64,000 nt of DNA from a candidate division FCPU426 bacterium (GTDB lineage Bacteria > Oederibacteriota > PGYV01 > Palsa-1178): NCBI GenBank assembly GCA_963840035.1, contig CAWIXE010000001.1, forward strand, positions 64,001-128,000, read 5' to 3'. The translations under genes and the position numbers were made by a program. Positions 183 to 19,810 of the stretch are shown in pieces. Below the pieces are notes generated by a model. The model was not told the origin of the DNA. It saw only the letters and a list, made by a program, of their open reading frames with translations, and did not search any database. Positions within the stretch are counted from its first letter, which is position 1. Every line of letters begins with the position of its first letter.

Positions 183-1085
183 TTATCTTTTTGATTTTTC
201 AAGACTCGTAATATAAATACACCTATATTCCGAACCTGGTTTATTATTGTTTTGTTGACCGTTTTTCTTATAAAAATAGCATATGATTTTTTGATAATTA
301 TCATCCTCTCTGGCAACTTTCAATATAACTGATAAATCATTTTTATTTTTCCATTTTCCTTCATACTCCATATCTCCTCCCTGTATGTTTACTAAATATT
401 TACCATCTGTTATAAATGTGTCTATACTAGTGTAAGCTTGGTTGATATAATATGCGTTGAAAACATCAAACTTCCACTCTTTTTTAATTTTATTATACCC
501 TTCCAATTCTAATATTTTCCCGACATATGCGTCTCTGTTTTCATATAATTCTTTTAATGTAACATTAAATGTTTTTACACTGCATTCATCTCCTTTATAA
601 TCCCGCTTGTCCTTACCCGTCACTTTTATGTTAATTCCGCATTCATTCTCTTTTCCTGTGAATAATTCCTTTAATAATTCTTCATTTGTTTTTTTATACA
701 AATATTTTATATTGATATAGTATTCCTTGCCGCTTTTTAAACCTGTAATAGACAAACAATTATTTTGTGTAAAAATTGTCTTTATGATTTTTTCACTTAT
801 TAAATCATTAACTACACCTGTTGCTTTATCGCCGATGTTTTTTTCATAAATATTCACCATATATCCTAATTCTTTTATTGAATCTACGGTAACATTGATA
901 TTTGATAAATCTTCTGCGGACATGTCAGCTAATTTGTCCCACGATAAAAGTACAACATTCTTAAATAAATTTGCCGTGATATGTTTTTTTATACTGCCTT
1001 TTTCCGTTTGTTCCGAAATACCACAATACAAAATTTGAGAAAATAGGATAAGCAAAAAAATAATTGTAAATGTTGTTTTTTTCAT
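183..1085 (-). CDS. Hypothetical secreted protein, very AT-rich
   Basis: 300-aa ORF, signal-peptide-like N-terminus (MKKTTFTIIFLLILFSQILYC), GGAG RBS; visibly much lower GC than neighbours. Confidence 0.75.
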   Translation of the reverse strand: MKKTTFTIIFLLILFSQILYCGISEQTEKGSIKKHITANLFKNVVLLSWDKLADMSAEDLSNINVTVDSIKELGYMVNIYEKNIGDKATGVVNDLISEKIIKTIFTQNNCLSITGLKSGKEYYINIKYLYKKTNEELLKELFTGKENECGINIKVTGKDKRDYKGDECSVKTFNVTLKELYENRDAYVGKILELEGYNKIKKEWKFDVFNAYYINQAYTSIDTFITDGKYLVNIQGGDMEYEGKWKNKNDLSVILKVAREDDNYQKIICYFYKKNGQQNNNKPGSEYRCIYITSLEKSKR

Positions 1086-1239
1086 TTGAGCTCCATATAA
1101 GAAAAAGGTGTCAGACTTGGCTTTTAAATTTTATAATTTTTCTTAGTTTTCTTAAGTATCAGACTGATTTCCTTCTGCATCTTTTAATCTTATTTTTCCT
1201 GTCTCCAGTCTCCTGTCTGCTCTTACCTCATACTTATTA

Positions 1240-3027
1240 TTATACGGTGAATTTGTCCGTGGCGTTCTTTAAGGTTTCCGCCGTGCCTGAGAGCGTCTCT
1301 GCCGCGGCGTGGAGTTCTTCCATGGCTGAGGACTGTTCCTGTGACGATGCGGCTGCTTCCTGGGAAGAGGCCGCTATCTGCTGCGATGACGCGGCGATCG
1401 ATTCCACCTGTGAGGCCACGTCATTGACGCTTACCACTATTTCCGCGAAAAGCCCGTGCGCCTCTTTTGAAATTTCCGCGCTTTCCGTAATGGCAGCCGA
1501 GCTTTCCTGTGATATTTCCACGGCAGATATGATGTCATTCCTGACTTCTTTTATCCTGACCCTGATCTTCTTAGCCTGTTCTGTGGATAAATCCGAGAGT
1601 TTCCTTATCTCTTCTGCCACCACTACAAACCCGCGGCCGGACTCGCCGGCGCGCGCCGCTTCAATGGCCGCGTTAAATGAGAGCAGTTTTGTTTCATCAG
1701 CCACAGATTCTATGACCGCGACCATGTTCTGTATCTCCTGTGAATGGCCGCCGAGCACATCCATTTGTTTGCTCGACCTGGCGTAAGAATCGGTAAGATT
1801 ATTCATTTTTTCCATAAGCTGGTCCATCCTGTCAGCGCCGTTCTGGGCGGCTTTCTCCGCCCTAACGCTCGCGGCCGATGCCGCCTGTGAATTTTTCGCG
1901 GCCTCTGAAGTAGCCTGTGATATGGACCCGACTGTTTCCGCCAGCTGGGATATGGTATTCTGGCTCTGCTCCGATATGGCCGCAAGCTCCTTTGAAGAGG
2001 ACGCGATATACCCGGCTTCCATCTGTATCCTTTTTATTAGTTCGCGCAGATTCACCAGCATTGACTCGCTTGCCTTTCCAAGCACGTCGTTATCCGACTT
2101 TGCAGTGAACTGGGCGGAAAGGTCCCCTGAAGCTATTTTCTCGGATATGCCGGCTATCGCGTTAAGGTATTCTATCATACCGGAAAAAGCCCTTCCTATG
2201 GCGTCCCGGCCGGACCTTATTTCTATCTTTTCCCCGATAACGCCCCCGGAAATTTTTTCCGATATAACGGCTATCTTATCCATATAAGCGGCCAAATGGC
2301 TGAAATTCCTGGATAGTTTCTCAACCTCATCCCCCGATTCCACAATGGCTACTTTGCTCCATGTCTCGCCGCTGCTTAATTTTTCGGATATATCCGCTAT
2401 CTTATTGACCGGCCTTATCATGCTTAAATAAAGGAACCCGAATATCATCAGCGCGATGGCCGCGGTTCCGGCTATTCCCAAAAAGACTGAATTCCTGGCG
2501 GTTTTTCCCATGTCCAGGTTCAGGGTTGTCTTGTCAAAAGCCACCGCAATTGATCCGGCATTTTTGTTTTTATAGGCAATCGGCAGCGAAATCTCATAAG
2601 AATCCCTGCCATATCCTTTTACCTGTGAAATGTTGTAACCAAGCATTTCATTTTTCATCTTCACGGTATCCGGCATCGCAAAATCAGTCCTCCCTTCGGA
2701 GTTGTACTTCGCGATTACTTTCCCTTTCAGGTATACAGCCGCGTAAAGCATGTCTTCCCTGGTAACCGCGGCCTCCAGTATGAATGTCAGCTGCCTTATG
2801 TCGGCTTCTTTTAAACCGCCATTGTTTTTTTCAAAATTTGCCCTCACGACAGGCCCGGCCATATACACGCAGAATTCGCCAAGCGACACGACTTTTTCGG
2901 CAAACTTCTGCCCCACTATCCTGCTGTAGTTTGACATGTTGTAATAAGTTATGCCCCACGCCAGTAAAACAGCGCCAATAAAAACGATAAGCGCCGCTTT
3001 AAGCCCGAAAGCCATTTTTAACCGCAT
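1240..3027 (-). CDS. Methyl-accepting chemotaxis protein (2 TM, HAMP domains, MCP signalling domain)
   Basis: [30 protein letters not shown] hairpin signature; start moved to ATG 3027 behind GGGAG. Confidence 0.93.
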   Translation of the reverse strand: MRLKMAFGLKAALIVFIGAVLLAWGITYYNMSNYSRIVGQKFAEKVVSLGEFCVYMAGPVVRANFEKNNGGLKEADIRQLTFILEAAVTREDMLYAAVYLKGKVIAKYNSEGRTDFAMPDTVKMKNEMLGYNISQVKGYGRDSYEISLPIAYKNKNAGSIAVAFDKTTLNLDMGKTARNSVFLGIAGTAAIALMIFGFLYLSMIRPVNKIADISEKLSSGETWSKVAIVESGDEVEKLSRNFSHLAAYMDKIAVISEKISGGVIGEKIEIRSGRDAIGRAFSGMIEYLNAIAGISEKIASGDLSAQFTAKSDNDVLGKASESMLVNLRELIKRIQMEAGYIASSSKELAAISEQSQNTISQLAETVGSISQATSEAAKNSQAASAASVRAEKAAQNGADRMDQLMEKMNNLTDSYARSSKQMDVLGGHSQEIQNMVAVIESVADETKLLSFNAAIEAARAGESGRGFVVVAEEIRKLSDLSTEQAKKIRVRIKEVRNDIISAVEISQESSAAITESAEISKEAHGLFAEIVVSVNDVASQVESIAASSQQIAASSQEAAASSQEQSSAMEELHAAAETLSGTAETLKNATDKFTV

Positions 3028-3050
3028 TCTCCGCTCTCCCGTCACATTTA

Positions 3051-4211
3051 CTATTTATTTTTAGTTCCCGAATATAAACCGGTAACCACCCATGAAGCGG
3101 CATTTATAATGCCGGATTTTTTCTTCCTTACGCCGCGCGCCGCTTCCTTCGCCAGATTTGAGGACCTCTCAAAAAATTCAGGCAGGTTTATCCACGCCAT
3201 GGCTGTTATTTCGGATATCCTTCCGGCCCCTATAAACTTCAGGGGTTTTAACAACCTTCTTAAACCCTCTGCCATCGCCTCACGCGGCAGCAGAGCCGCC
3301 AGCATGGATGAGATGCCGGTCAGGATCAGCACGCGTGACGCGAAAAAACCGCCTTCAGCCATCCCAAAATCTGTTATTGTAACAGGCCCGGCCTGAAAGA
3401 CCGGGTTGCCTCCGCCGTTAAAAACAGCGGGTATAAACACTGAAAACAGCGCCAGATACTTCGCCCTCCATACAGAGATAACAACTTTCTCAAGTTTCCC
3501 TGACGCGGCCGCAATCCCGGCGATGAAAGCCGCGGATACCGCGAGGAACACAAACCTTCCGGCCAGAAGGACCGCGGCTGAGAACACTGCCGCGAATAAT
3601 ATCATGAACACGGCTCTTGCGGCAAGCCTGCCGGGCACCCGCACATGATGCCCGGTTTTAAATCCGGTTGTCCCGGCGCCGCCCCGGGCGGCTATGGCCG
3701 CGCACGCGTCAGAGGCTATAACCCCGTTTAAAAACCCTGACAGCGCGCCCGTTATGGCGAGCAGCGGCATAATCCACAAAACCGCATCGTTCCTTATTAA
3801 AATAAAATATACTATGGCTACCTGCGCCGCGTTATGAGCCACCCCGCCTGCTATTGATATCCCGGCGAGCGAAATAGGCGGCTTTTTCATCGTCTTAAGC
3901 GGAAAATAAAAAGCCGCCATGACAAGCGTGCTGGTAATTGAGGCGCCAAGGCTAAGAATAAAACCGGGCGACATTAATGTGCCGAGCATAAGCGACGCCA
4001 GCAGGCATCTCAGCACAGCCACTTCCATCGCACCCTTAAATCCCAGCTCCACCATGGCTATCATCGTAAAAATATTCGCCAGTCCCAGCTTGATTCCCGG
4101 TACCGGAAGCCTGGGAAGGAAAGATTCAGCAGCCTGGAGTACTGTGGCGCATGTCACAAGCAGGGCTGTTTTTTCCGTTTCCCGTCCGGCCTGGGGCTGC
4201 ATCAGGTTCAA
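3051..4211 (-). CDS. Gx transporter family (EetB-like ECF S component) fused to an EcfT/CbiQ-like domain, copy 1
   Basis: ESFLPRLPVPGIKLGLAN and GGVAHNAAQ Gx motifs; C-terminal half hydrophobic with EGLRRLLKPLK...ARG EcfT-like segment. Confidence 0.8.
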   Translation of the reverse strand: MNLMQPQAGRETEKTALLVTCATVLQAAESFLPRLPVPGIKLGLANIFTMIAMVELGFKGAMEVAVLRCLLASLMLGTLMSPGFILSLGASITSTLVMAAFYFPLKTMKKPPISLAGISIAGGVAHNAAQVAIVYFILIRNDAVLWIMPLLAITGALSGFLNGVIASDACAAIAARGGAGTTGFKTGHHVRVPGRLAARAVFMILFAAVFSAAVLLAGRFVFLAVSAAFIAGIAAASGKLEKVVISVWRAKYLALFSVFIPAVFNGGGNPVFQAGPVTITDFGMAEGGFFASRVLILTGISSMLAALLPREAMAEGLRRLLKPLKFIGAGRISEITAMAWINLPEFFERSSNLAKEAARGVRKKKSGIINAASWVVTGLYSGTKNK

Positions 4212-4582
4212 TATGAAAGAGCGTCAAATCCCGGTTTCTCCCCCGGGGATTCTATTTCTATGAGCACTTTATTGGGCACGCAGACTATTGATTCCCCCGG
4301 GCGGCATATGGCCGCCGCATGCGAGCATATCTGCCTGGGACAATCCGATTTTTTCACGCTTATCCGGCCGTTCTTTGATTCTATGACCATTTTTCCGGTA
4401 TCAACAACAGAATCCTTTTTCATGTCAAGTTCGCCGGTTTTTACGCCCCCTGTATATATGACGGCTTTCCCGGAAGAACCGGAACTTTTTACCATGACAA
4501 AACCCGCGGATATGATAACTACGCTGATTAGCAGGATTATATCCGCGGTTTTTATGATGTACATAGCATCCCTGTTTATCAT
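4208..4582 (-). CDS. NusG domain II-containing (Lin0431/EetA-like) exported protein, copy 1
   Basis: SDCPRQIC...ESIVCVPNKVLIEI motif; N-terminal TM; 4-bp overlap with the Gx gene. Confidence 0.85.
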   Translation of the reverse strand: MINRDAMYIIKTADIILLISVVIISAGFVMVKSSGSSGKAVIYTGGVKTGELDMKKDSVVDTGKMVIESKNGRISVKKSDCPRQICSHAAAICRPGESIVCVPNKVLIEIESPGEKPGFDALSY

Positions 4583-4603
4583 AACACCCCCGCTGATATA
4601 CTA

Positions 4604-4632
4604 AGTATACGCACAGCCAAAGCTTATGTCAA
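4604..4632 (-). promoter_or_regulatory. Sigma70-type promoter for NusG-II/Gx-EcfT/MCP
   Basis: TTGACA-N17-TATACT on minus strand, 22 bp upstream of the start. Confidence 0.6.
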
Positions 4633-4684
4633 TTTTTAACTGGATTTAAAGCGGTTTTTTTGTTAAAACAGCATGGCTTATAAC

Positions 4685-6532
4685 CTAAAGTATAAATTTA
4701 TCAGTGGCTGATTTTAGCGTATTTGCGGTATCGGCAAACTCTGAAACTACGGCGTTTAATTCCTCCATGGATGACGACTGTTCCTGTGACGAGGCTGAAG
4801 CTTCCTGTGAGGACGCCGCGATCTGCTGTGAGGACGCGGCTATTGATTCCATCTGCGCCGCGGTCTCATCTACGGATTTTACTATATCGATGAAAAGCAT
4901 ATTTGTCTCTTTGGCAAGCTCTTCGCCCGCCCTTATTCCTTCATATTCCCTGTTTACAATCTCTATGGCTTCAGCTATATCTTTCAATACCGCCTTTATC
5001 CTCTCGGCTATTTTCACCGCCTGCTCATTGCTCATGTCTGAAAGTTTCCTTATCTCTTCGGCTACGACCACAAAACCCCTTCCCGCCTCACCGGCGCGCG
5101 CGGCTTCAATAGCGGCGTTAAACGAAAGCAGCCTGGTCTCGTCAGCCACGGATTTTATAACCGCGGTCATGTTCTTTATCTCCTCGGAATGCTTCCCGAG
5201 CTTATTCATAGACTGCGTGGACAGCCCTATTTCAGAACTTAACTCCGTCATTTTTTCCAGCAGCATATTCATGCGCTCCGTGCCTTTTTTTGCGGAATTT
5301 TCAGCCTTAATACTGGCATGCGATGCTGTCTGCGAGTTCTTAGCCGCTTCGGATGTGGCGTTGGATATGTTTGAAATGGTCTCTGCCAGCTGCCCTATGG
5401 TAGCCTTGGACTGCTCGGAAATGTTCATCATCTGTTTTGAGGAATCGGCAAGAAAGTTGGACTGGTCCTGTATGCTTGAAACAAGGGTTTTAAGAGAAGC
5501 TGTCATGTCGGCGCAGGCATTGCCAAGCATGTCTTTGTCGGATTTTGCCATGAAACTTGTCGTAAGGTCTCCTTTTGCCACTTTGCCGAGGAACGAAGAA
5601 ATTTCATTGATGTACTTTAACATCTTTATGAAGGAAATTCCGAGCGTGTCCTTGTCGGATTTCGGCTCAAAGGCGTCCACAACCTCGCCGGAGGATACAT
5701 TTTCCGATACCCATGCAATAAAGTTTATATACTCCGACATCTCATGAAAACTCTTCGTTAAAACGCCTATCTCGTCATTGCTTTTTATTACCTCTATATT
5801 TTCGCTGATATCGCCGGTGGCTATCCTGGCTGATATTCTTGACAACTTTTTAATGGGCCTTATCATGTTAAAAAATATAAATAACACGATCAATACGCCG
5901 ATTACTGTCGCGTTCAGCGAGGTAAAAATAAAGGCGGACTGCGTGCCGCTGTTTATCTGTTTTGTAATGCTTTTCATATCAAAGCCAAGGATAAGCTGCC
6001 CGACTTCGTTGCCCATAAGCAGGAGTTCGTCCCCGCCCTTTAATTCTATGGGAATGGTTATTTCATAGCTGCTTTCACCCTTGCCTAATACGGAATACAG
6101 CGGGTATGATGTGAACTTTTTGTCCGTCTTCGTTTTTTCGGGAAGTTTCGCGTTCCCGGAAACAAATGCCGAACTTATTACCGCGTTGTTCTGCTTTATA
6201 GCAGCGTATATGATGTCTTTCCTGGATACGGCCGCCTGGAGGACCTCGTTTATCCTCTGCTTTATCCTGCGTTCCGGGTTTATTTTAAGCTTTGCTTTCT
6301 GGGACGCTGACATATTCTGCAGGTTCTGCAGCTCCAGCATGGATTGGCTTACGAGCGAAGCCGTATTCTCGCCCAGGGTTATAATCCTCTCCTGGAATTC
6401 CTTCATCACGATTTTTTTATAGATATAAGCGTCATATGTAGACCCGGCCAGGCTTATGAGGACCATGGTGGCAAGGACCATAAAGGAAATTTTAAAGCCC
6501 AGTGACATCGCTGCATTTTTTCCTTTTGCCAA
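4685..6532 (-). CDS. Methyl-accepting chemotaxis protein, paralogue of 1240..3027
   Basis: [33 protein letters not shown] start with GAGGTG RBS. Confidence 0.93.
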
Positions 6533-6615
6533 ACCGCACCTCGTTTTTAAGATGAAATGTACCTTTTATTATTATATACCATGACACTTATAATTACAAT
6601 ACTCTATGGCGGTGT

Positions 6616-6873
6616 GATACTGTACGTAATAGTGTGTAAACTCGGAACCGGGCACCTCCCCTCTCCCTCCATGGCTACTTATAGTCCCCCCTTGCGGGGG
6701 AGAGAGGGCTAGGGAGAGGGTGCCGTAGAGGCAATCCGGCTTTTGGGAGAGATATGCATTGCCGATACCTCACCCCCATCCCGTCCTTCCCCCTTCGAGG
6801 GGGAAGGGGGTGCTTATAAATGCCAACATATTTGCCTACTATTATTAATTTACACACTATTAAAGACAATATC
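6616..6873. mobile_element. MITE 1 with IS256-like ends, carrying REP-like G/C palindromes
   Basis: 25-bp imperfect TIR GATACTGTACGTAATAGTGTGTAAA / TTTACACACTATTAAAGACAATATC; flanking direct repeat (t/c)GGCGGTGT. Confidence 0.75.
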
Positions 6874-6881
6874 CGGCGGTG

Positions 6882-7874
6882 TTATTGCGCCTTTGCCTTG
6901 TTTTTTCCCTGCTTAACCACGCTTACAACCCCGGCAAGGCCGTCGGTATAATAGACTTCCTGTCCTTCAGTTACAACCACGGCTTCGGCATTTCCAAGTT
7001 TTTTAAGCATTTCAAAGCCTTTTTCCCTGCCCATGATAAATATTGAGGAGGATAAACCGTCAGCTTCCACCGGATCCTGGCACATGACCGTGACGCTTAT
7101 TAAACCCCTGGCGGGTTTTCCGGTTGCCGGGTCCATAAGGTGATGGTAACGCACGCCGCCCTCCTCAAAAAACCTTTCATAATCCCCTGAAGATATTACA
7201 AGCATGTCTGACACTTCCAGCACGCCTATGACCCCGTTTCCCCTCGGGTCTTTTATTCCGACCTTCCAGTCCCTGCCATAGTTTTTACCGATGGCATAAA
7301 TGTCTCCGCCCGCGTCAATCAGCGCGTTTTTAACCCCCTCTTTTTTCAGGGTATTGGCGCATTCCTCCACCGAGTATAATTTCGCTATGCCGCCGATGTC
7401 CACTGCAGTGCCTTTCCTTAATTTCGTGAGACGGCCGTTTTTTATCACAAGGTTTTTGTACCCGACATCTGCCAGAGCCTTTTTTATGGCCGCGTCCGCG
7501 GGCACCTTCATCGTGTCATAAAACCCCCACAGCTTCATGATGGGATAAATGGTTATGTCAAATTTTCCGCCTGAGAGGACGCTCACATTTATGCCGCGCT
7601 GTATTATTTTAATTATTTCAGGGTCTGTTACCGGTATGTTCTCATTGTTGAATTTATAAAGGATTGCGTCTTTGTCAAGGATGCTGAATTTTTTCCCGAT
7701 CTCTTCCATCCTGTCCAGGGCTTTATCGATAGCCGGCAGGATTTCCCTGCCTCCGGGCACCTGTATCGTGACTATTGTATCCATCATAAAACGCGTCCTC
7801 TTCTGCATCTGCCCCGTACATCCTGAAAGCGCGAATACCAGCATCGCTGCGGCAACACATAAAAGTTTTTTCAT
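6882..7874 (-). CDS. apbE: FAD:protein FMN transferase, lipoprotein
   Basis: Lipobox LSGC; MDT, FDITIYP, DIGGIAK, SSGDYERF, RYHHLMDPATG, ADGLSS motifs. Confidence 0.95.
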   Translation of the reverse strand: MKKLLCVAAAMLVFALSGCTGQMQKRTRFMMDTIVTIQVPGGREILPAIDKALDRMEEIGKKFSILDKDAILYKFNNENIPVTDPEIIKIIQRGINVSVLSGGKFDITIYPIMKLWGFYDTMKVPADAAIKKALADVGYKNLVIKNGRLTKLRKGTAVDIGGIAKLYSVEECANTLKKEGVKNALIDAGGDIYAIGKNYGRDWKVGIKDPRGNGVIGVLEVSDMLVISSGDYERFFEEGGVRYHHLMDPATGKPARGLISVTVMCQDPVEADGLSSSIFIMGREKGFEMLKKLGNAEAVVVTEGQEVYYTDGLAGVVSVVKQGKNKAKAQ

Positions 7875-7988
7875 TTTTCCTCCAAAGCCGGCCTTAAAAA
7901 CCGGTAAATGTTTTATTTTTTAACTTGCAGGCCACATTATAAATGAAAAAGCGGCTTTTTCAAGCCGCCCTTTTTGGATCTCTATTTT

Positions 7989-8438
7989 TTATACAAGTTC
8001 GTATGAGTTCTTACCCGTCTTTTTCATCATGTATTTCTGCCTTAAAAGGAGTTTCGCGAGCGTGTATGAGTCCAGATAATCCATCATAGCAGCCCTTAAT
8101 CCTTCCCACATTTCCCTTGTGGCGCAGGTGTTTGCGTTCGGGCATTCGGAATTTTCAGGAACGCAGCACAACGGCAGGACATCGCCCTCAGCCGTCTGTA
8201 TGACGTCTCCCATCTTGATCTTTTTCGGGTCCATGGCCAGGACAAACCCGCCGCTTTTGCCTTTTGTGCTCTGCACAAAACCGGAATTAATGAAAAGCCT
8301 CATTATGTTTTCCAGGTATTTCACGGATATTTTCTGCGTTATTGAAATCCTTTTCAGGGACACAGGGCCTTTTCCATATTGCGTGGCAAGGCAAAGCAGC
8401 GCTCTGATAGCATATCTTCCTCTTGTTGATATTTTCAT
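7989..8438 (-). CDS. Rrf2 family transcriptional regulator (Cys-containing)
   Basis: STRGRYAIRAL, YLENI, KGKSGGF, C-terminal Cys cluster; ATG 8438 with GGAGG. Confidence 0.92.
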   Translation of the reverse strand: MKISTRGRYAIRALLCLATQYGKGPVSLKRISITQKISVKYLENIMRLFINSGFVQSTKGKSGGFVLAMDPKKIKMGDVIQTAEGDVLPLCCVPENSECPNANTCATREMWEGLRAAMMDYLDSYTLAKLLLRQKYMMKKTGKNSYELV

Positions 8439-8532
8439 AATTTTCCTCCATGAAGCATGATATTTTGATGTGAATATTATCACAATGTATTATAAACAAA
8501 TTGACATTAAAAAGATAGGATTTTTATTTTAA

Positions 8533-8964
8533 TTACCGACTTTTGGTCGACACAATGCCGATTTCTCCGCTTATTAACTGCTGAAGATTTACTGAAGAAA
8601 GGTAATTTTGAACCGCGTCATGATAGCCCTTCCACGCGCTTAAAGCCTGACAGGTTTGATATTTTGGGCAGTCTCCCTGGTTATCGAGGCATGGCACAGG
8701 GGATATGGTGCCTTCCGTTATTTTCAATATTTCTTCCATGGTTATCTTTGATGGTTCCCTGGATAGTATGAATCCGCCTTTGTTTCCTTTGGAACTTATT
8801 ACAAGCCCTATCGCCGAAAACATCCTCATGATGTTTTCCAGGTACTTCTCTGATATGCCTTCGTTTTTAGCTATAGTTCCTATGGTAAGAGGCCCATGCC
8901 CAAAATGCAGGGCAAGTTCTATCATTGCCCTTAATGCGTACCTGCCTCTTGTTGATACCTTCAT
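8533..8964 (-). CDS. Rrf2 family transcriptional regulator (3 Cys)
   Basis: STRGRYALRAM, YLENI, KGNKGGF, C-x6-C-x5-C; ATG 8964 with GGAGG. Confidence 0.92.
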   Translation of the reverse strand: MKVSTRGRYALRAMIELALHFGHGPLTIGTIAKNEGISEKYLENIMRMFSAIGLVISSKGNKGGFILSREPSKITMEEILKITEGTISPVPCLDNQGDCPKYQTCQALSAWKGYHDAVQNYLSSVNLQQLISGEIGIVSTKSR

Positions 8965-9070
8965 TTGATCCTCCAATATAATCATAAAACCCGGGGCTTA
9001 TGGGGCGGCTTTTCAGGGCCGCCCCTATATGCCGTTAATACCCCCGTACTTCATTGCCTTTTAGGCCCGC

Positions 9071-9604
9071 TTACTTTTTAGCTTTTACAGCCGTGAACGC
9101 GTCATATATTATGAGCGCCCTTTTAGCCGCTATAACCACTGCTTTTGAGGAAATTGTAGCGCCTGTTATCGCCCTGACATCTTTGCCTATCTCTATCGTG
9201 TCTGCCGATGACTTGCCCGCGAACTGCTTTACAAAATTAGCCTGTTTGATGCCTGCCCCGCGTTTTTCCGACATTGATATATATCCTATGGAAAGGATCT
9301 TCTTTGTCGCAGCGTCAATGAGTATGCCCATCTTAATCGGGCCCCATTTTCCCATCTGCTCCTCAATTACAACCGCGCCTGTCTTTGATGTATAAATCTC
9401 ATACTCCGTCCTTACCGGCATCTTATTCGCCAGCCCCGCCTGCACCGCCGCTGTCAGGTCGGCGCTTACAGCGAAAACCTGCGCCTTAAGGTCTGAATCC
9501 GGAAGTAGTTCTTTTACCACATTAGTCTTCATGTCTTCCGCCATGACTGAAACCGCCAGCAGCATCACCGCCGCCATTACCGCTACCGCAAATAACTTTT
9601 TCAT
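9071..9604 (-). CDS. Periplasmic FMN-binding protein, copy 1
   Basis: Signal peptide; GKWGPI, E-x-RG, F-x-x-QF-x-GK, ITGATISS flavinylation motif (9146..9169). Confidence 0.88.
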   Translation of the reverse strand: MKKLFAVAVMAAVMLLAVSVMAEDMKTNVVKELLPDSDLKAQVFAVSADLTAAVQAGLANKMPVRTEYEIYTSKTGAVVIEEQMGKWGPIKMGILIDAATKKILSIGYISMSEKRGAGIKQANFVKQFAGKSSADTIEIGKDVRAITGATISSKAVVIAAKRALIIYDAFTAVKAKK

Positions 9605-9712
9605 GATGTCTCCTCCTTTAAAATATTTTATATTTCCTTATCATTTGACGTATGAGTCCGTTTTTGGAGGGGTGGTTTTGCGCACCCCTCCAAATATCAC
9701 ACTGTTAATTTA

Positions 9713-10819
9713 TTAGAATGTTACCCTCACGCCAAGCGACGGCCTCGTGTAGACGAGCGTCGATGTGCCTGAGTTGTTCCTGATATCCACTACGTCGGTT
9801 GCGAACTGCAGGTATGTCGCGTCAGCAAGCGATATTACAGCGCCCGCCGTTGTCTGAACGCCCATGACAGGCATTGCCGTTGTTTTCGTGAAGTTGTCAT
9901 ATTTCCAGTCATGCGCGGCAAAAAGCTTGAGCCACGGCAGCACTTTATACATTGCCTTCACATAATATGTGTCTGAAATTCCGTCCTGTGATGCCGAGAT
10001 AAGCTGTTCCTGTTTTCCCGCGGCGTACTCCGACCTGATGGAAAAATCGCCGATTGAATACATGAACCCGGCTGACCACTTGGTGTTTGCAAGCTTTTCC
10101 TTGGCGCCAGTCCTTGCCGAGTATATCGAGCCAAGAACCGTAAGGCCGTTCCATACCGGCTCAACGTGCAGCATGACTCCCGGCTCGTTGTTTATGTCAA
10201 AAGCTCCGTCCTCTGTTCCGCCGTTAACGACGTACGCGTATACAGGAAGAGTCACATCGCCGATGGAAAATGCCTTGCTTACTTCGATACCGCTGTCATG
10301 CACCGCTCCAATGCCGAGGGCAAATAGGCCTCCGTTAAACTGCTCTTCCCAGAAAAGTTCGTGTCCGTACTCTGCCGTAAACTTAGGGTGTACCTGTCCG
10401 ACTTCCATTGTAACGTCATAAGGAAGGTCGAATATTACCACTGCTTTGCCGTGTCCGAAATCTTTGAACACATAAGCGGAACCTGCTGTAGCTGTCTGCG
10501 TAACCCCGAACTTCGGCGTCGCGCCTGTGCTGCAGGAAAATTTCGGGTCTACTTCAAAGCTTATCCAGTTATTGATTTTTCCCGAGATGAAAAGGTCCAG
10601 TTCCTTAAAGCCAAAACCGTAAGATTTTTCTATAGCTGTCTGAGTGCCGTTATTCCTTACGATTGATGACGGGCGGTCAAACAGCGTCATCTTTATGTGC
10701 CCGCCTACCGATACCGACGGCCCTTCCCCTGTTGCTGCCGCTTCTTCGGCAAATGAAAACACCGCGAAGCCAAGCGCAAGAACCGTTACAACTGCCACCG
10801 CAAAAAATTTCCTGAACAT
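9713..10819 (-). CDS. Outer-membrane beta-barrel (porin-like), copy 1
   Basis: Signal peptide, alternating amphipathic strands, C-terminal LGVRVTF. Confidence 0.8.
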   Translation of the reverse strand: MFRKFFAVAVVTVLALGFAVFSFAEEAAATGEGPSVSVGGHIKMTLFDRPSSIVRNNGTQTAIEKSYGFGFKELDLFISGKINNWISFEVDPKFSCSTGATPKFGVTQTATAGSAYVFKDFGHGKAVVIFDLPYDVTMEVGQVHPKFTAEYGHELFWEEQFNGGLFALGIGAVHDSGIEVSKAFSIGDVTLPVYAYVVNGGTEDGAFDINNEPGVMLHVEPVWNGLTVLGSIYSARTGAKEKLANTKWSAGFMYSIGDFSIRSEYAAGKQEQLISASQDGISDTYYVKAMYKVLPWLKLFAAHDWKYDNFTKTTAMPVMGVQTTAGAVISLADATYLQFATDVVDIRNNSGTSTLVYTRPSLGVRVTF

Positions 10820-10871
10820 GCTGTCCTCCTTGAGTTTTTTCAGGCCGGGTTTAAAGCCCGCCTTTTTTTTG

Positions 10872-11387
10872 TTATGCCTGTACTGTTTTTTCCTTATACA
10901 GCCACATTTCGTATAACGGCACTACGAGCATAATTAGCAGCGAAATACCCAGCAGCATACCCGAGAGCACCATGAATATTGACATCCACGCCGCCACATA
11001 CCTGATTAGCCAGAAAGACGCGTTCGCGATTAAAACCGCGATAAAGCCGTCAACAAGCGCGAATTTTTTTAGCCACTTCGGCACTGACCTTGCGAACATG
11101 AAGATTAAGCCTATTGTGAATGTCATAAGCGTCATCCCGAAGAAATGCGTATGGGTGTGCTGCATGAGGTACGCGGCGTCCGGTGGCTCAATCATTTTAG
11201 CCTCGTTGCCCCTGTAGTGGTCCGCGATTGAATCCGGGTTAAACCCTTCCGTTAAAGCCACCGTGCCTACCGCCGTCAAATAAGCCATACCCATACAGAT
11301 AATAAACAGGGTCAAAAACAGCTTGATGGTCAGCGATAATTTGCTTAAGTTCACCATCTTTTCAATTTCCTGCACTTCGTTTTCCAT
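10872..11387 (-). CDS. His-rich inner-membrane protein, copy 1
   Basis: About four hydrophobic helices; DHYRG and QHTHTHFFGM motifs conserved with 14972..15484. Confidence 0.75.
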   Translation of the reverse strand: MENEVQEIEKMVNLSKLSLTIKLFLTLFIICMGMAYLTAVGTVALTEGFNPDSIADHYRGNEAKMIEPPDAAYLMQHTHTHFFGMTLMTFTIGLIFMFARSVPKWLKKFALVDGFIAVLIANASFWLIRYVAAWMSIFMVLSGMLLGISLLIMLVVPLYEMWLYKEKTVQA

Positions 11388-11414
11388 AAACCCGCCTCCT
11401 TTGTAATGTATATT

Positions 11415-12611
11415 TTATATTGAGACTTCCGCGCTGGTGTAAAGCGCCGCAATTACCGCCGTAAAGTAGGCGATCGCGCTTTTTAAATCCCGCTTTTTCT
11501 CGTTTTTAAAACTTTTTACAAGACCCGCGGCCCTGTCCCAAAAAAGCGGCACAGCGGCCCATGACCTGACTATGATATGCGAGGTCCTGCTGCCGTTTAT
11601 CCCGGCGAACTTAAATGGCCTTAAAAATCCTTCTATTGATTTAAGCAGCCCTTCGGGCGCCGTTGTCTTTATCATCAGGTCGGCCGTAATCATGAGAAGG
11701 ACCATTCTGAATACAAACATCGCTCCCATACTAAGGCCTGTTTCGGTTATACTAACGGGCCCTGCAGCGTATAACACCGCTCCTCCGTGGTTAAAAAACA
11801 GCGGCATAAAGAATGAAAACATCAGAAACCATTTCATCCTTGCAACCCCTGTGAAAATCGCCTTAAAACTTATTCCGGCTGCCATTGCCGTGATCAGTAT
11901 TGCGGCGAGCATGGCCAGGAATAATTCCCTGCTGGAAAAAAATATTATTGCCGCAGCTGCCGCCGCGGTTATAATTATTTTCATTGACGGGTCTGCCGCG
12001 TGAAGAAAAGACTTTCCATTTATATATCCGCGCCACGGCGCGGATGCAGCCTGTTTTTCGCCCGTGAATCCCATGGCCTTCTCATTAGCGCTGCCGGGCA
12101 GAGCGATCTTCGCGCATACTCCGGACGCCACAAGGCCTGTTATCCATCCCGTAACCACCGAACTTATACCCAGCCAGGGCGCGAGCATTAAAACACCCGG
12201 GCTTCTTATAAAGAACGCGTAAATCACCGCCAGCTGGGTCATGTTATGCGCCACAGCGCCAAGCAGGCTGATTCCTATGAGGCTTAAGGCGGGTTTTTTA
12301 AAGTTTTTAAGTATGGAATACACGGCGCCCATGACAACGCTGCTGGCTAATGCCGATGTGAAGCTTAATATAAAGGAAGTGGAAAGGAAAGTTCCGAGTA
12401 AAAGCGAGCTTATTAGCGACCTTAACACGGCTATTTCCACAGCCGCTCCAAACCCCAGGTCCACAAGAGCGACTAAAGTAATCATGTTTGCAAGGCCGAG
12501 TTTTATGCCGGGTATGGGCTGCGGTAAAAAGGATTCCGCCATCTGGAGGATGGAGGCTATCGTGACAAGGAGCGCTGTTTTCTCTGTTTTTACGTCGGGT
12601 TTAAAATTCAT
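11415..12611 (-). CDS. Gx transporter family (EetB-like) fused to an EcfT/CbiQ-like domain, copy 2
   Basis: PIPGIKLGLAN, GAVAHNMTQL; SFLHAADPSMKI is a typical EcfT N-terminus; TTAPEGL...FLRPF. Confidence 0.82.
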   Translation of the reverse strand: MNFKPDVKTEKTALLVTIASILQMAESFLPQPIPGIKLGLANMITLVALVDLGFGAAVEIAVLRSLISSLLLGTFLSTSFILSFTSALASSVVMGAVYSILKNFKKPALSLIGISLLGAVAHNMTQLAVIYAFFIRSPGVLMLAPWLGISSVVTGWITGLVASGVCAKIALPGSANEKAMGFTGEKQAASAPWRGYINGKSFLHAADPSMKIIITAAAAAAIIFFSSRELFLAMLAAILITAMAAGISFKAIFTGVARMKWFLMFSFFMPLFFNHGGAVLYAAGPVSITETGLSMGAMFVFRMVLLMITADLMIKTTAPEGLLKSIEGFLRPFKFAGINGSRTSHIIVRSWAAVPLFWDRAAGLVKSFKNEKKRDLKSAIAYFTAVIAALYTSAEVSI

Positions 12612-12619
12612 ATGCCGCC

Positions 12620-12994
12620 TCAGTAACTGACAGTATCAAACTGTGTGGAATTATTTCTTGGTATTTCTATTATTACCCTGTTTGGCAGGCATACCAGCGA
12701 CTGCCCCGGCTGGGAAATCCATCCGCCATGGCTGCAGATCTTCCTCGGACAGTCCGACTTTAACACCCTTACACTGCCATCTTTGACCTCAATTTCCATG
12801 CCGTTTATAACGGTGATTGAATCTTTTTGAAGGCTGATCTCATGTTTATCGTCATTATTTTTTGTTATTTCGGCCACCTCTGAGCGCTGGCCTGGCAGAA
12901 GCGTTGAAAACAGGGGCGCTGAAAATAACACAAGTATAAGCATGGCCGCGGCGTAATCCATCGGCCTGGCGGAATAAAACCTTGTTTTATCCAT
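12620..12994 (-). CDS. NusG domain II-containing (EetA-like) exported protein, copy 2
   Basis: SDCPRKIC..GWISQPGQSLVCLPNRVIIEI. Confidence 0.87.
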   Translation of the reverse strand: MDKTRFYSARPMDYAAAMLILVLFSAPLFSTLLPGQRSEVAEITKNNDDKHEISLQKDSITVINGMEIEVKDGSVRVLKSDCPRKICSHGGWISQPGQSLVCLPNRVIIEIPRNNSTQFDTVSY

Positions 12995-13027
12995 TTCAAT
13001 CGCCTCCCTGCATTCTAATTGCTACTA

Positions 13028-13074
13028 ATACTATCTCTTTAGTAGTATTATAGCAGGCGGTTAATAAATGTCAA
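13028..13074 (-). promoter_or_regulatory. Sigma70 promoter with overlapping candidate Rrf2 operator
   Basis: TTGACA-N16-TATAAT with TG extension; operator-like ATACTATCTCTTTAGTAGTAT at 13028..13048. Confidence 0.65.
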
Positions 13075-13240
13075 GTATGATTTTTCACAAGCGGGGGTCT
13101 TCCGGACGGATATTTTCGCCTCAACATTCATGTGCGCGCTTTTATTCACATGACGCGGGCGGCGGTTGCCGCATTATATGATTACAAATAAAAAACCGGC
13201 GGCTTTTCAGCCGCCGGCATTATGTCTTTACATGCAGGCG

Positions 13241-13756
13241 CTATTTTTTTTCAGCAAACGCGCCGTATATGACCAGCGCCCTTTTTGCGGCTATTGCCAC
13301 AGCTTTTGACGAAATGGTGGCGCCTGTTATCGCCCTGATGTCCTTGCCTGTCTCGATGCTGTCAGCCGCTGATTTTCCGGCAAACTGCTTGATAAAATTA
13401 GGCTGCTTGATGCCCGCGCCGCGCTTTTCCGACATTGAGATAAACCCTATGTCCCTGATCTTTTTTGTCGCGGGGTCGATGGATATTGCCATCTTGATGG
13501 GACCCCATTTTCCCTTCTGCTCCTCTATGACCACGGCGCCGGTCTTTGAGGAGTATATTTCATACTTCTTACTTACGGGCATTTTGTTATTCAGCGCGGC
13601 CTGCACCCTTGCGGTTACCGCGTCTGTGACTTCAAAGGCCACGGCTTTCAGGTCTGTATCAGGCAGCAGACCCTTGACCACGGTCTCTTTCATGTCCGCG
13701 GCAATGACACCCGCTGCAACCGATAACATAAGCATCAAAAACAATATTTTCTTCAT
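13241..13756 (-). CDS. Periplasmic FMN-binding protein, copy 2
   Basis: Close paralogue of 9071..9604; ITGATISS motif. Confidence 0.88.
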   Translation of the reverse strand: MKKILFLMLMLSVAAGVIAADMKETVVKGLLPDTDLKAVAFEVTDAVTARVQAALNNKMPVSKKYEIYSSKTGAVVIEEQKGKWGPIKMAISIDPATKKIRDIGFISMSEKRGAGIKQPNFIKQFAGKSAADSIETGKDIRAITGATISSKAVAIAAKRALVIYGAFAEKK

Positions 13757-13789
13757 TCACTTCCTCCTTAACATATTGGTCTTTTCTTA

Positions 13790-14887
13790 TTAAAAAGTCA
13801 TCCTTACGGCGAGGGTGGGCCTTACGAATTGAAGGCCGTCCGCCCCGTTATTCTGCATCCAGTCGGCGCAGTCCACCTGAAGCATTACATATGTGCTGTC
13901 CGAAAGGTTCATGTCCAGGACCGCGGTATTTGTTATGTACTTTTCCCCTCCCAGGTTTGCGGTATAGAAAAACCCGTTAAAATTATGCGCGGCCACGTTA
14001 TAATTGTAAACAAGCTTCAGCCACGGCATGAATTTATACGCGGCCTTAATATAGTAGCCGTATGTTGCCGCGTCCTTTCCGGCGCCCATTTTGTTTTCCC
14101 ACCTGCCGTTTGCAATCTCCGCGCGCAGCTGCAGGGCTTCCCAGTTGAACTGGATTCCTCCTGAAGCCCTCTGATACGCATTGTGCCTGCCCGTGTCGTA
14201 CGTCCCCACAGTATAAGACCCCATGACTTTGAACATCCCCATGGCCGGTTCGGTATGTATCATCACCGCGGGCTGCCTGTTGTTGTCATAAGTGTCCTCC
14301 GCGCCGTATCCGTTCATGGCATATAGCCAGACAGGGATGGCCGCATCACCTACAGCAAAGGATTTATATATTTCTATGCCTGTATCCGCCATTTCCCCCA
14401 GCCAGGGATTGGCGGCAAATTTTGATCCGTTGAATTCCTCATCCCAGAATAGCTCCTGCCCGTATTCCACTGTAAAGAGCGGCTTTAAAAGCCCTGCCGA
14501 TATCTCCACCTCCATCGGGGCGGTATATTTTATCAGCGCCTTGTTAAATCCTCCAAACGCCGCCGATTCCGATGAAAGATTATCGCCGATGTTGCTTCCA
14601 AACTTCGGGGTGGCTCCCGTGCTTGCCCTGAATGACGGCTCCACCTCGACAGACAGTACGTCGGATAATGTCTGTGAAATATACAGTATTACCTCGCCAA
14701 AGCTGAATCCGGTAAATTCAGTCGAGCCGTATTTCACGCCGCCCGCCGCCGTCCTTACCCCGTCTGCCGCGTCAAATAAAGTCATTTTTATGTGTCCGCC
14801 TACAGTGGTTCCTGTGTCGGCGCAAAACGACGCGGGCGCAAATGCCATTACAAAAACAGCTGCAAATAACAACATTTTCTTTTTCAT
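13790..14887 (-). CDS. Outer-membrane beta-barrel (porin-like), copy 2
   Basis: Signal peptide; VGGHIKMTLFD, STGATPKFG, EYGxELFWxExFNG shared with copy 1; C-terminal LAVRMTF. Confidence 0.8.
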   Translation of the reverse strand: MKKKMLLFAAVFVMAFAPASFCADTGTTVGGHIKMTLFDAADGVRTAAGGVKYGSTEFTGFSFGEVILYISQTLSDVLSVEVEPSFRASTGATPKFGSNIGDNLSSESAAFGGFNKALIKYTAPMEVEISAGLLKPLFTVEYGQELFWDEEFNGSKFAANPWLGEMADTGIEIYKSFAVGDAAIPVWLYAMNGYGAEDTYDNNRQPAVMIHTEPAMGMFKVMGSYTVGTYDTGRHNAYQRASGGIQFNWEALQLRAEIANGRWENKMGAGKDAATYGYYIKAAYKFMPWLKLVYNYNVAAHNFNGFFYTANLGGEKYITNTAVLDMNLSDSTYVMLQVDCADWMQNNGADGLQFVRPTLAVRMTF

Positions 14888-14971
14888 GTTTTCCTCCCCT
14901 GATTTTAATTCCCCTTATACTGCGCTTTCATTAAAAAGCCTCAATCACCCCCGTAACTGATTATGCTTTTA

Positions 14972-15484
14972 TTACTTAACGGCTTTTTCTTTATAAAGCC
15001 ACATTTCATATAAAGGCACTAGAAGCATGACAGCCAATGAAATACCAAGTAAAATCCCGGACAGGACCATGAGCACCGCCATCCACGAAGCCACATACCT
15101 TATCAGCCAGAACGAGGACGTCGCGATTAACACAGCCACAAAACCGTCGACAAGCGCGAACTTTTTCAGCCATGCGGGTATGGACCTGGCAAACATGAAG
15201 ATAAGCCCTATGGAAAAGACCATAAGGGACATGCCGAACATATGCGTGTGGGTATGCTGCATCAGATACGCGTTATCAGGCGGTTCAATCATTTTTGCCT
15301 CGTTACCCCTGTAATGGTCGGCTATGCTTTCGATGGAAAAACCTTCTGACAACGCCACAGTCCCGACAGCTGACAAATACGCGAACCCCATGCAGATAAG
15401 GAACATGGTAAAAAAATACTTCAGTACTGGCGGAAGCTTGCTTAAGTTTAAAAGTGACAAAAACCCTTCTCTTTCATTTTCCAT
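14972..15484 (-). CDS. His-rich inner-membrane protein, copy 2
   Basis: Paralogue of 10872..11387; QHTHTHMFGM. Confidence 0.75.
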   Translation of the reverse strand: MENEREGFLSLLNLSKLPPVLKYFFTMFLICMGFAYLSAVGTVALSEGFSIESIADHYRGNEAKMIEPPDNAYLMQHTHTHMFGMSLMVFSIGLIFMFARSIPAWLKKFALVDGFVAVLIATSSFWLIRYVASWMAVLMVLSGILLGISLAVMLLVPLYEMWLYKEKAVK

Positions 15485-15684
15485 TTATAACCCCCCGGCG
15501 GTTTTTTAGCGTATTTTAAGCATACCCATGCAAATGCCATAATTTTAGCCATAAAGGCCTTTTAGACAAGATTTTAGTTATTAACCCCAATAAAATAAAG
15601 GAACAACTGCGTTTTTTAAACGGAATTTTTAGATATATATGATATACCATATAATAACGTGAATTTCAACCTGGCGCGGATTTT

Positions 15685-15886
15685 GATATTGTAAATAATA
15701 GTGTGTAAACTCACTTTGGCCTTTAAATATCTTTGTTTTCATTAGAAACGGCTTTCACCCCTCTCCTCTTAGGAGAGGGGCAGGGGTGAGGTGAAACCAA
15801 TTGTCTTATTCCCCTCACCCTACCCTCTCCCAAATGGGAGAGGGATAAAAGAACAAATCAATTTACACACAATTAATGACAGTATC
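15685..15886. mobile_element. MITE 2 with IS256-like ends
   Basis: TIR GATATTGTAAATAATAGTGTGTAAA / TTTACACACAATTAATGACAGTATC; perfect 8-bp TSD CGGATTTT. Confidence 0.8.
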
Positions 15887-15913
15887 CGGATTTTTTTGGC
15901 GTTATGCCCTGAA

Positions 15914-16131
15914 AGATACTGTCGAAAAACCCGGATTTTTATAGGTTTCGACTCAGTCATGCGATGTCTTTGCGAGGAGCGAGTTTCTCAGCTACGAAGC
16001 AATCTCTGTACTTTTGTGGAACCGCGCGTACTTAAATTGCTTATCAATGAAACTGGGATTGCTTCGTCGCCATGGACCAAAAACGGCTCCTCACAATGAC
16101 AATCTAATCAAGGACTTTTTCGACAGTATCT
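15914..16131. mobile_element. Second MITE type enclosing a GCGAGGAGC..GAAGCAATC / GATTGCTTC..CTCCTC palindrome
   Basis: Perfect 16-bp TIR AGATACTGTCGAAAAA / TTTTTCGACAGTATCT; no credible coding capacity. Confidence 0.65.
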
Positions 16132-16173
16132 GCATAACAAAACCCCTCCTGTTAAGGAGGGGTTTTGTTATGC
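16132..16173 (-). terminator. Hairpin terminator downstream of the cupin gene
   Basis: GCATAACAAAACCCCTCCT / AGGAGGGGTTTTGTTATGC inverted repeat. Confidence 0.6.
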
Positions 16174-16180
16174 AGCTTTT

Positions 16181-16489
16181 TTATTCTTTTACCATGGTTA
16201 AAAGCATTTTAAATTTTTCCACAGCGGTCACCGCGTGCGGAACATTTGCCGGCATAATTATAAGCTCCCCTTGCGTCAGCTCTTGGGGCGTCCCGCCAAC
16301 AGTGATTCTTCCCGTCCCGTCCAAAACCTGCACTAGCGCCTCAAAAGGCGCGGTGTGCTCCGAAAGCGCCTGTCCCTTATCAAAGGCAAAAAGCGTAACA
16401 GTCCCTGATTTCTTGTTTAACAGCTGTTTTGAGACTATGGAATCCTTCGCATACTCAACCCCGTCTTTAAGAACAATTTTCTCAGCCAT
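16181..16489 (-). CDS. Cupin domain protein
   Basis: TLFAFDKGQALSEHTAP...MPANVPHAV. Confidence 0.9.
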   Translation of the reverse strand: MAEKIVLKDGVEYAKDSIVSKQLLNKKSGTVTLFAFDKGQALSEHTAPFEALVQVLDGTGRITVGGTPQELTQGELIIMPANVPHAVTAVEKFKMLLTMVKE

Positions 16490-16621
16490 GATGTAACCTC
16501 CGTTTTTTTCGTTGAGTCTCAGAGACAGGAGACTGCAGACAAAAGTAAACCGAAGACTTACTTCTTACTCCTGTCTCCTATCTCTTGTCTCGCTATCCTT
16601 AGACTATTCTCATATCCCCGC

Positions 16622-17671: not shown

Positions 17672-17811
17672 GGCAGCACCTCCGGAATTTTATATAAAAC
17701 GTCTTTATGAGTTTCAGAGACAGGAGATAGGAGACAAAAGTGAACCGCGGACCACTTCTTACTCCTGTCTCCAGTCTCTTGTCTCGCTCTTCCTCCACCA
17801 ACCACCCACTT

Positions 17812-18669: not shown

Positions 18670-18722
18670 AACCCACCGCCTTTTTATTATTCATTACTCA
18701 TTGTTAATTATTCATTGCTTGT

Positions 18723-18770
18723 ATATCACCTTCTTAGTGATATATTACCAAATTAGTAGGAAACTGTCAA
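18723..18770 (-). promoter_or_regulatory. Sigma70 promoter with candidate Rrf2 operator
   Basis: TTGACA-N17-TAATAT; palindrome ATATCACCTTCTTAGTGATAT at 18723..18743. Confidence 0.7.
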
Positions 18771-18905
18771 CTGATTATTTCAAATTATATATATAAGGAA
18801 GGTTAATAAGAAATGGTGTTTATGTGGCGTAAAATCCCTCTGTGCGGGCCGCCACATGCGGCGGCCCCTACAGGGTTTATAAAAAAATATTTAAAGCCTG
18901 CGTTA

Positions 18906-19141
18906 CTCACCTCGTTATATTAAAAAAGGCCCGCTAAAATCAGCGGGCCTTTTTTAATCCGAATAGCTCACCTCATTATATTAAAAAAGGCCCGCTAAAA
19001 TCAGCGGGCCTTTTTTAATCCGAATAGCTTACCTCGTTATATTAAAAAAGGCCCGCTAAAATCAGCGGGCCTTTTTTAATCCGAATAGCTCACCTCGTTA
19101 TATTAAAAAAGGCCCGCTAAAATCAGCGGGCCTTTTTTAAT
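18906..19141. repeat. Tandem array of four 61-bp units, each a bidirectional intrinsic terminator
   Basis: Units start at 18906, 18967, 19028, 19089; each has ATTAAAAAAGGCCCGCT-AAAATC-AGCGGGCCTTTTTTAAT; two single-base variants. Confidence 0.92.
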
Positions 19142-19365
19142 ATGGGTGCAGGACGATATAAGGGGTTTTGGGAGGGGGTTAGTTAGGGGGAACCTGCACC
19201 CATATTTTATTAGTTCATCTCTGTGTGTTTTTTAAGAACTTTATAGCATGTCTACTAATAATTGATGTAAAAGTGAGGTTTTTGCGTCATAGCTAGGAAG
19301 TGTTTGTTTCCGGGTTTCCATCTTCCTGGTCTGCTCACTTTTTGTCTTAAAACCCGACTGTTTCA
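19100..19365 (-). ncRNA. Candidate structured small RNA
   Basis: Orphan TTGACA at 19395..19400, nested stems, a 14-bp stem with C-rich loop, then a terminator; no long ORF. Confidence 0.4.
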
Positions 19366-19809: not shown

Positions 19810-19810
19810 T

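Follow-up and report, generated by a model that had tools for sequence, protein, structure and literature searches.

Electron transfer across the outer membrane is, as far as we know, thought to need multihaem cytochromes; in MtrAB-type porin-cytochrome conduits, a dedicated barrel is encoded with periplasmic and inner-membrane redox partners. Flavin-based extracellular electron transfer (EET) is known from monoderm bacteria. The EET locus of Listeria monocytogenes encodes FmnB (an ApbE), PplA, EetA, EetB, FmnA, Ndh2 and DmkA/B (PMC9973259, in the portions covered). We analysed a 64,000-nucleotide stretch of a candidate division FCPU426 genome (contig CAWIXE010000001.1, positions 64,001 to 128,000; hereafter the window), which contains a locus of 15 open reading frames (ORFs) at 1240..15484, every one on the minus strand. 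As in Listeria, this locus has genes for ApbE, a motif-bearing FMN_bind protein, an EetB-type S component (PF07456, two copies), an EcfT-type part and NusG_II. In our judgement there is an even chance that the locus encodes a flavin relay across both membranes that passes electrons out without c-type cytochromes, in which outer-membrane barrels would themselves carry flavin.

Below, G000 is the source genome, C1 and C2 are two of its contigs, and numbers with G, L and P denote other genomes, loci and proteins. The genes and motifs on which the proposed relay depends are as follows.

14972..15484, minus strand: TM2, four-helix membrane protein of PF27139 (Aq_1264_TM), whose helix 2 carries invariant H79-x-H81 at its predicted periplasmic end
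13790..14887, minus strand: Por2, predicted 16-strand outer-membrane barrel with a signal peptide and C-terminal Phe
14609..14620, minus strand: TGAT of Por2 (residues 90-93), where predicted outer loop 2 begins; a candidate site for flavinylation by ApbE
13241..13756, minus strand: FMN2, exported FMN_bind protein with TGAT at residues 144-147
12620..12994, minus strand: NusG2, membrane-anchored NusG_II domain protein, which we take to be EetA-like
11415..12611, minus strand: GxT2, EetB-type S component (PF07456) fused to a shortened EcfT/FmnA-type part (S-T fusion), predicted FAD exporter
10872..11387, minus strand: TM1, second PF27139 protein, 75% identical to TM2
9713..10819, minus strand: Por1, second barrel (Porin_O_P match), of a subclade other than that of Por2
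10517..10528, minus strand: TGAT of Por1 (residues 98-101), aligning with the Por2 motif
9071..9604, minus strand: FMN1, exported FMN_bind protein with TGAT at residues 147-150
6882..7874, minus strand: ApbE flavin transferase with a lipobox-like signal, the sole copy found in the genome
4208..4582, minus strand: NusG1, second NusG_II protein
3051..4211, minus strand: GxT1, second S-T fusion, whose sister is the fusion of the chemoreceptor-type cassette L079

A motif-bearing barrel in a conserved gene set

The first-pass annotation of the window had given the order and strand of the 15 genes, which the ORF list bears out, and a Pfam scan of 20 window proteins (positions 183 to 19833) confirmed the families of the ORFs: two MCP (PF00015 plus HAMP), two PF07456+PF02361 fusions, two NusG_II, one ApbE, two Rrf2 and two FMN_bind. 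The annotation had also remarked on the absence of CxxCH, and indeed neither CxxCH nor Cx2-4CH occurs in any of the 15 proteins. Its central idea of a trans-envelope conduit is strengthened by a motif that it had overlooked, the TGAT in the barrel itself; electron flow along the conduit is something that we infer from sequence.

Por1 matched Porin_O_P (PF07396) at 25.9 bits, over the Pfam cut-off of 20.9; Por2, which is 36% identical to Por1, had no Pfam match. A structure model of Por2 is a 16-strand barrel (pLDDT 84) with TGAT in the loop after strand 3. TGAT is present in both barrels and in a third paralogue elsewhere in the genome (G000:C1:28242-29333). Among 40 barrel homologues, the motif reads TGAT in 27, SGAT in nine, TSAT in three and AGAT in one (strict [ST]GA[ST] in 36/40), and A92, T93 and P94 are invariant; outside the motif position, [ST]GA[ST] occurs only three times in the remaining 14,574 residues. 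When the barrel was divided into segments, with boundaries set by eye, the turns on one side were short and of fixed length, whereas the loops on the opposite side were long and variable. The motif lies on the side of the length-variable loops, and is thus predicted to face outwards. In genome G021 (L080:2418-3518), a TAG breaks the barrel gene near the motif region of an otherwise complete cassette.

We also surveyed GTDB genomes for the locus, confirming 25 loci of 44 pattern matches; these overlap the 40 homologues and include close kin. The survey was anchored on the barrel and so misses cassettes with other barrel types, and many loci end at contig ends. The strict barrel motif is present in 17 of the 25 loci, and the last residue is Thr in 21 and Ser in four, such that it is always Thr or Ser, an exchange that ApbE tolerates. 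Ala is the first motif residue of both the barrel and the FMN protein in five loci of one clade (about one event), and a sixth barrel locus has the Ala switch in the barrel alone. These patterns bear on whether the motif is a structural or non-covalent flavin site, with the barrel a mere pore for flavins or small oxidants and redox chemistry confined to the periplasm. A-T-P may be kept as an anchor of the loop, the FMN proteins do not share the invariant Pro that follows Thr in the barrels, one motif-bearing barrel has no cassette gene within 8 kb (L034), and one locus (L042) comes after riboflavin synthesis genes. By contrast, an ApbE site accounts for the Thr/Ser exchange and the parallel Ala switch better than a structural turn does, and a seven-residue tag is enough for ApbE, loops included (PMC12052999, in the part covered). 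We therefore regard a purely structural or non-covalent motif as improbable.

Within 6 kb of the 25 barrels, we found genes for FMN_bind proteins (21 loci), PF27139 (19), ApbE (18), S-T fusions (14), NusG_II (14), Rrf2 (8) and MCP (2). Co-occurrence of the triad of membrane protein, barrel and FMN-binding protein with apbE, which the first-pass annotation had put forward as a check, holds in 15/25 loci, where PF27139, FMN_bind and ApbE genes stand together beside the barrel. The surveyed loci span Elusimicrobia, Latescibacterota, Fibrobacterota, KSB1, Cloacimonadota, Planctomycetota and Armatimonadota, among others. PF27139 genes number one in 6/7 other genomes of the family and two in G000; a phylum tally with a narrow PF27139 profile gave 13/99, an undercount.

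The locus had been described as duplicated. In FastTree trees with midpoint rooting, TM1 and TM2 are sisters, as are FMN1 and FMN2 (71% identical), in agreement with that description; Por1 and Por2 fall in different subclades, which is not. GxT1 groups with the fusion of L079, a chemoreceptor-type cassette from another family that ends in an orthologue of MCP1. Because the trees split Por1 from Por2 and place GxT1 with L079, we read the locus as a mosaic in which two types of cassette, one with the membrane protein and one with chemoreceptors, are combined, with two barrel types on near-identical partners. Recent duplication of a whole cassette was ruled out by the trees.

Membrane protein, predicted flavin export and genome context

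The first-pass annotation had called TM1 and TM2 His-rich membrane proteins. This is overstated for proteins with four His in 170-171 residues, yet two of the four, H79 and H81, are the only invariant residues in an alignment of 150 sequences. The family is PF27139 Aq_1264_TM (the Pfam label of 17/17 matches; Atlas score 0.95), and 1102 representatives matched its profile at E 0.001, indicating that it is wide. The model is a four-helix bundle (pLDDT 95.8), and the positive-inside pattern predicts that the loop preceding H79 is periplasmic. A fold search returned general four-helix bundles only (best Z 9.4, rmsd 3.2, 115 aligned), and a PDB sequence search gave nothing significant.

Some relatives link the family to redox proteins. 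PF27139 is fused to ApbE in P0135, and CxxCH is inserted into the periplasmic loop of 5/150 members. At L051, the barrel comes after a DUF4405-like gene (24.1 bits, under the cut-off) and a DUF2271-like gene; haem b binding has been shown for the DUF4405 family (PMC11334425, in part). At L042:3855-4331, L080:1783-2259 and L083:2771-3244, a membrane protein of ~158 residues with one His (weak CopD match) occupies the PF27139 slot. Together, the ApbE fusion, the CxxCH inserts and the slot replacements point to an electron-transfer role for the PF27139 protein. In three Latescibacterota loci (L033, L035, L045), a single-CxxCH protein precedes PF27139, and HemA and multihaem cytochrome genes are nearby; the absence of haem c is thus not a general property of the cassette.

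The source genome, which is 98% complete, has one ApbE and two FMN_bind genes, and RibA and RibH homologues are present. The exported ApbE and FMN_bind genes lie at most five genes apart, the spacing that defines an ApbE flavinylation-associated cluster (Meheust 2021), and [S/T]GA[S/T], the motif used in the same work, is carried by both FMN proteins and both barrels. Likeness of the flavin exporter to that of Listeria had been proposed, and stands for the EetB-type S component. The T part, by contrast, is short, since the CbiQ model matched the S-T fusions only to position 139 or 177 of 216; an [AS]RG word is present in 3/21 fusions, and no ECF ATPase in the genome scored over the cut-off (best 164.5, cut-off 315). 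The short T part and the lack of an ECF ATPase over the cut-off suggest that export may be ATPase-free or may use an unrecognised ATPase; GxT1 and GxT2 (3051-4211, 11415-12611) are thus a possible ATPase-free flavin exporter.

Omp85 (BamA-type) matches in the genome indicate that an outer membrane is present. No match was found in the genome for Rnf/Nqr (PF03116 included), cytochrome bd, MqnA/D or flagellin, and a ferredoxin at 17812-18669 scored 30.8 against an RnfB cut-off of 68.7. CxxCH occurs once in 11/3039 ORFs of the genome, and more than once in none. The genome encodes a NarI-type domain, suggesting that haem may be scavenged.

The genes, the motifs and their conservation, the co-occurrence, the operator described below and the absence of matches for other ApbE clients are direct observations, and from these we infer flavinylation, each hand-off, the direction of flow and the acceptor. 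The S-T fusions would export FAD, and ApbE would attach FMN to TGAT in two places, the exported FMN-binding proteins and predicted outer loop 2 of the barrels, with the barrel being modified in the periplasm ahead of insertion. Electrons would pass from the two-histidine membrane protein, whose cofactor may be scavenged haem b or a metal ion, to the periplasmic flavoprotein, then to barrel-bound flavin and on to an outside acceptor. The role would likely be disposal of reducing equivalents in an anaerobe.

A shared operator and the chemoreceptor genes

The remaining features of the locus concern its regulation and its chemoreceptors.

13195..13218, minus strand: terminator-like hairpin closing the first triad (pattern match only)
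13047..13074, minus strand: sigma-70-type promoter before NusG2, 12/12 consensus with extended TG, position kept in relatives
13027..13049, strand-neutral: palindromic operator that is likely an Rrf2 site; its consensus is AATACTAC-N7-GTAGTATT, and it overlaps the -10 box at the end of the latter
8533..8985, minus strand: Rrf2b regulator, three Cys close to the C-terminus, true start probably about 8964
7989..8483, minus strand: Rrf2a regulator, nearest to the relatives' cassette-linked Rrf2, true start probably about 8438
4685..6532, minus strand: MCP2 chemoreceptor, periplasmic domain related to that of MCP1
1240..3045, minus strand: MCP1 chemoreceptor, whose orthologues in L031 and L079 come directly after the FMN gene

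The promoter before NusG2 is perfect and overlaps the palindrome at 13027-13049, which five relatives have at the corresponding position. A matrix built from these six sites found six sites of at least 15 bits in the genome and none in shuffled contig 1. The best site of all, which was not a training site, precedes an operon of two DOMON lipoproteins and the third TGAT barrel; other sites stand ahead of two lipoproteins, an [FeFe]-hydrogenase operon and a gene that itself comes before ATP synthase genes. Across eight family genomes, the operator pattern gave 31 sites (six being the training sites) against four with a reversed control. These precede rrf2 genes, an NAD-linked hydrogenase, a HydG-like gene, isocitrate dehydrogenase, polyprenyl synthase with nuo, and outer-membrane proteins; a few look unrelated. 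In G098, sites precede a Mo-oxidoreductase/NrfD operon adjoining the triad, and a DOMON-FMN-barrel operon. The position of the operator before rrf2 genes suggests autoregulation, and the operator is likely an Rrf2 site; no operator site lies before the TM2 triad or before the rrf2 genes of the window. We take the sites preceding redox genes (hydrogenases, the Mo-oxidoreductase/NrfD operon, polyprenyl synthase with nuo) to count in favour of a relay. The triad in G098 (L022:1156-10171) has two FMN genes and stands directly before an operon of Mo-oxidoreductase, NrfD, 4Fe-4S and TorD-type genes, with an operator site at each unit. At L049, L050 and L052, another palindrome (GGACA-N5-TGTCC-like) lies near the promoter upstream of the NusG_II gene, just after an rrf2 gene.

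The third-barrel operon (G000:C1:28242-31483; L001:8240-11484) encodes two DOMON lipoproteins, one with a Thr-rich stalk, a small protein and the barrel; in G098 (L077), the same set has an FMN_bind gene inserted. The stalked DOMON lipoproteins may extend the relay at the surface. The C-terminal His is kept in the four DOMONs here, with His or Lys close to the presumed place of the Met ligand, and haem binding by them is only a guess. DOMON domains bind haem or sugar (PMC4846438, in the part covered). An SGAT word in one DOMON protein was treated as chance, being absent from the three others. Beside the operon (L001:11783-17795) are a DsrE-like gene, a 4Fe-4S and NarI-type membrane protein and two HdrA-like flavoproteins; a similar set comes after the cassette in L079.

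The operator sites and the barrels also bear on reductive uptake of iron or another metal, in which the barrel would admit or bind a chelate, envelope flavins would reduce the metal, and the HxH protein would give electrons or bind metal. Published ApbE systems are often iron-linked (PMC8238504, in part), the barrels keep His32, Met209 and His211, a TonB receptor adjoins one distant cassette (L024), and a three-Cys Rrf2 could be a sensor of Fe-S status. By contrast, the best Fur-box match was 13/19 across ten window and 17 relative regions, such that Fur control of the locus was ruled out on sequence; FeoB and Fur are on other contigs, and FeoB is not preceded by the operator; no iron transporter was seen behind the fetched operator sites among the 36 proteins scanned with Pfam; and three distant barrels that we checked are of another type, without the motif. 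Metal uptake is thus unlikely, and for the metal or sulfur-compound assimilation suggested in the first-pass annotation we found no local evidence.

Redox sensing, in which a flavinylated barrel and flavoprotein would equilibrate with outside acceptors and report to chemoreceptors with no bulk electron flow, would account for the placement of a chemoreceptor or HAMP protein directly after the FMN gene in L031, L079, L051 and L044. In L031 and L079 this protein is an MCP1 orthologue (40% and 34%, respectively, counting the first 260 residues), and the periplasmic domain of MCP1 and MCP2 is confined within the genome to those two genes. However, only 2/25 GTDB loci have an MCP match, the cassettes of other family members that we examined have none, and the genome lacks a flagellin match. 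We consider sensing alone to have only a small chance of being correct. The genome has five MCPs and, judging by sequence only, chemotaxis-like and flagellar basal-body-like genes at C1:553000-563300 and C2:1066600-1072800, with no Flagellin_N match.

Several observations weigh against the flavin relay. The Asp upstream of the textbook ApbE motif is rare, being present in 6/40 barrels and likewise in 6/33 FMN proteins, although its loss has minor effects (PMC12052999). Barrels next to distant PF27139 genes lack the motif (0/3), indicating that the triad does not need it and that motif-bearing barrels are a distinct subfamily, and three loci have a chemoreceptor and no PF27139 (L031, which is cut upstream, L051 and L079). 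PF27139 has two invariant His, not four as in DUF4405, PepSY and MsrQ. As to the electron donor, the genome showed no HemA over cut-off, no HemB and no MqnA/D, and HemB was found in only 11/25 PF27139-bearing genomes, many of them incomplete. Many operator sites precede stalked lipoproteins of unknown function rather than redox enzymes. Lastly, some 25-30 A would separate the periplasm from a flavin on an outer loop, a distance that electrons could not cover in a single hop; bridging it would need loop 2 to fold into the pore, or free flavin to act as a shuttle. A stronger version of the relay, which we view as possible but doubtful, has the barrels as covalent flavoproteins showing FMN at the pore mouth, which with the periplasmic flavoprotein, an ATPase-free FAD exporter and surface DOMON lipoproteins would form an all-flavin wire across two membranes in anaerobes making no haem, rewired to chemoreceptors in some lineages.

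Upstream of the locus (window 16181-18669) are cupin, D-2-hydroxyacid dehydrogenase and 4Fe-4S genes, with a weak operator-like site (11 bits) nearby at window 18741; cupin and 4Fe-4S genes stand before the cassette in relatives too. Intergenic GC-rich imperfect palindromic repeats with the common flanking word GAGTTTACACACTA, at window 6533-6881 (before MCP2) and 15760-15900 (before TM2), may be a small repeat element.

Comparison with described systems

We found no description of this gene set in the literature searched. Such clusters may be listed as unassigned in subscription papers or in supplements, among them the cluster tables of PMC8238504 and PMC9973259, which lay outside that search. 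The covered portions of PMC11334425 and PMC9973259 do not describe the set. The first-pass annotation had asked whether the cluster belongs to an already described ApbE type, and no marker gene of the ten systems in the covered part of PMC8238504 is among the 20 scanned proteins: NosZ, PF13486, PF12801, PF01794, PF03929/PF16357 and PF02683 (Nos, Pce, NapH-like, MsrQ-like, PepSY-like and DsbD systems) gave no match. The cluster is real and conserved and appears to be unpublished; we class it as a variant of extracytosolic electron transfer based on ApbE, in which the porin is a candidate for covalent flavinylation.

Compared with Listeria, the host is a diderm, S and T are fused with T shortened, and PF27139, a motif-bearing barrel, Rrf2 and chemoreceptors are added; an Ndh2-type membrane-anchored NADH dehydrogenase is absent from the 20 proteins. 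L030 is closer to the Listeria locus in also having two prenyl-transferase-type genes (UbiA-family and polyprenyl synthase). PF27139 resembles the DUF4405, PepSY-like and MsrQ-like membrane cytochromes (PMC11334425, in the portions covered) in its small size, in its membrane location, in its histidines and in its place next to apbE and the genes for a flavoprotein and a flavin exporter; by contrast, it has just one HxH pair, on a single helix, where they have four central histidines, and it has no Pfam match to those families. A PDB sequence search of the barrel gave OprO as the best match (E 0.08, weak and not significant). The barrels resemble OprO/OprP porins in 16 predicted strands, a long loop 3 with a helix and, for Por1 but not Por2, the PF07396 match, and differ in their conserved loop-2 motif.

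DUF3570 is predicted to be a barrel, and may be the nearest precedent for a flavinylated one. This proven non-FMN_bind ApbE substrate of the DsbD system is likewise an exported protein of ~400 residues modified at [S/T]GA[S/T] (PMC8238504, in part). By contrast, the barrels here have no PF12094 match at E 0.05, have one motif rather than two, and are partnered by PF27139 and FMN_bind rather than DsbD, thioredoxin and DUF4266. If flavinylated, they would be a new class of ApbE substrate, with a membrane partner (PF27139) beyond the ten published systems. The locus has in common with MtrAB a dedicated barrel and redox partners, while its barrels have 16 strands and no multihaem insert; if the relay exists, a barrel with its own covalent flavin would be a route for cytochrome-free diderm anaerobes that surveys of multihaem genes miss.

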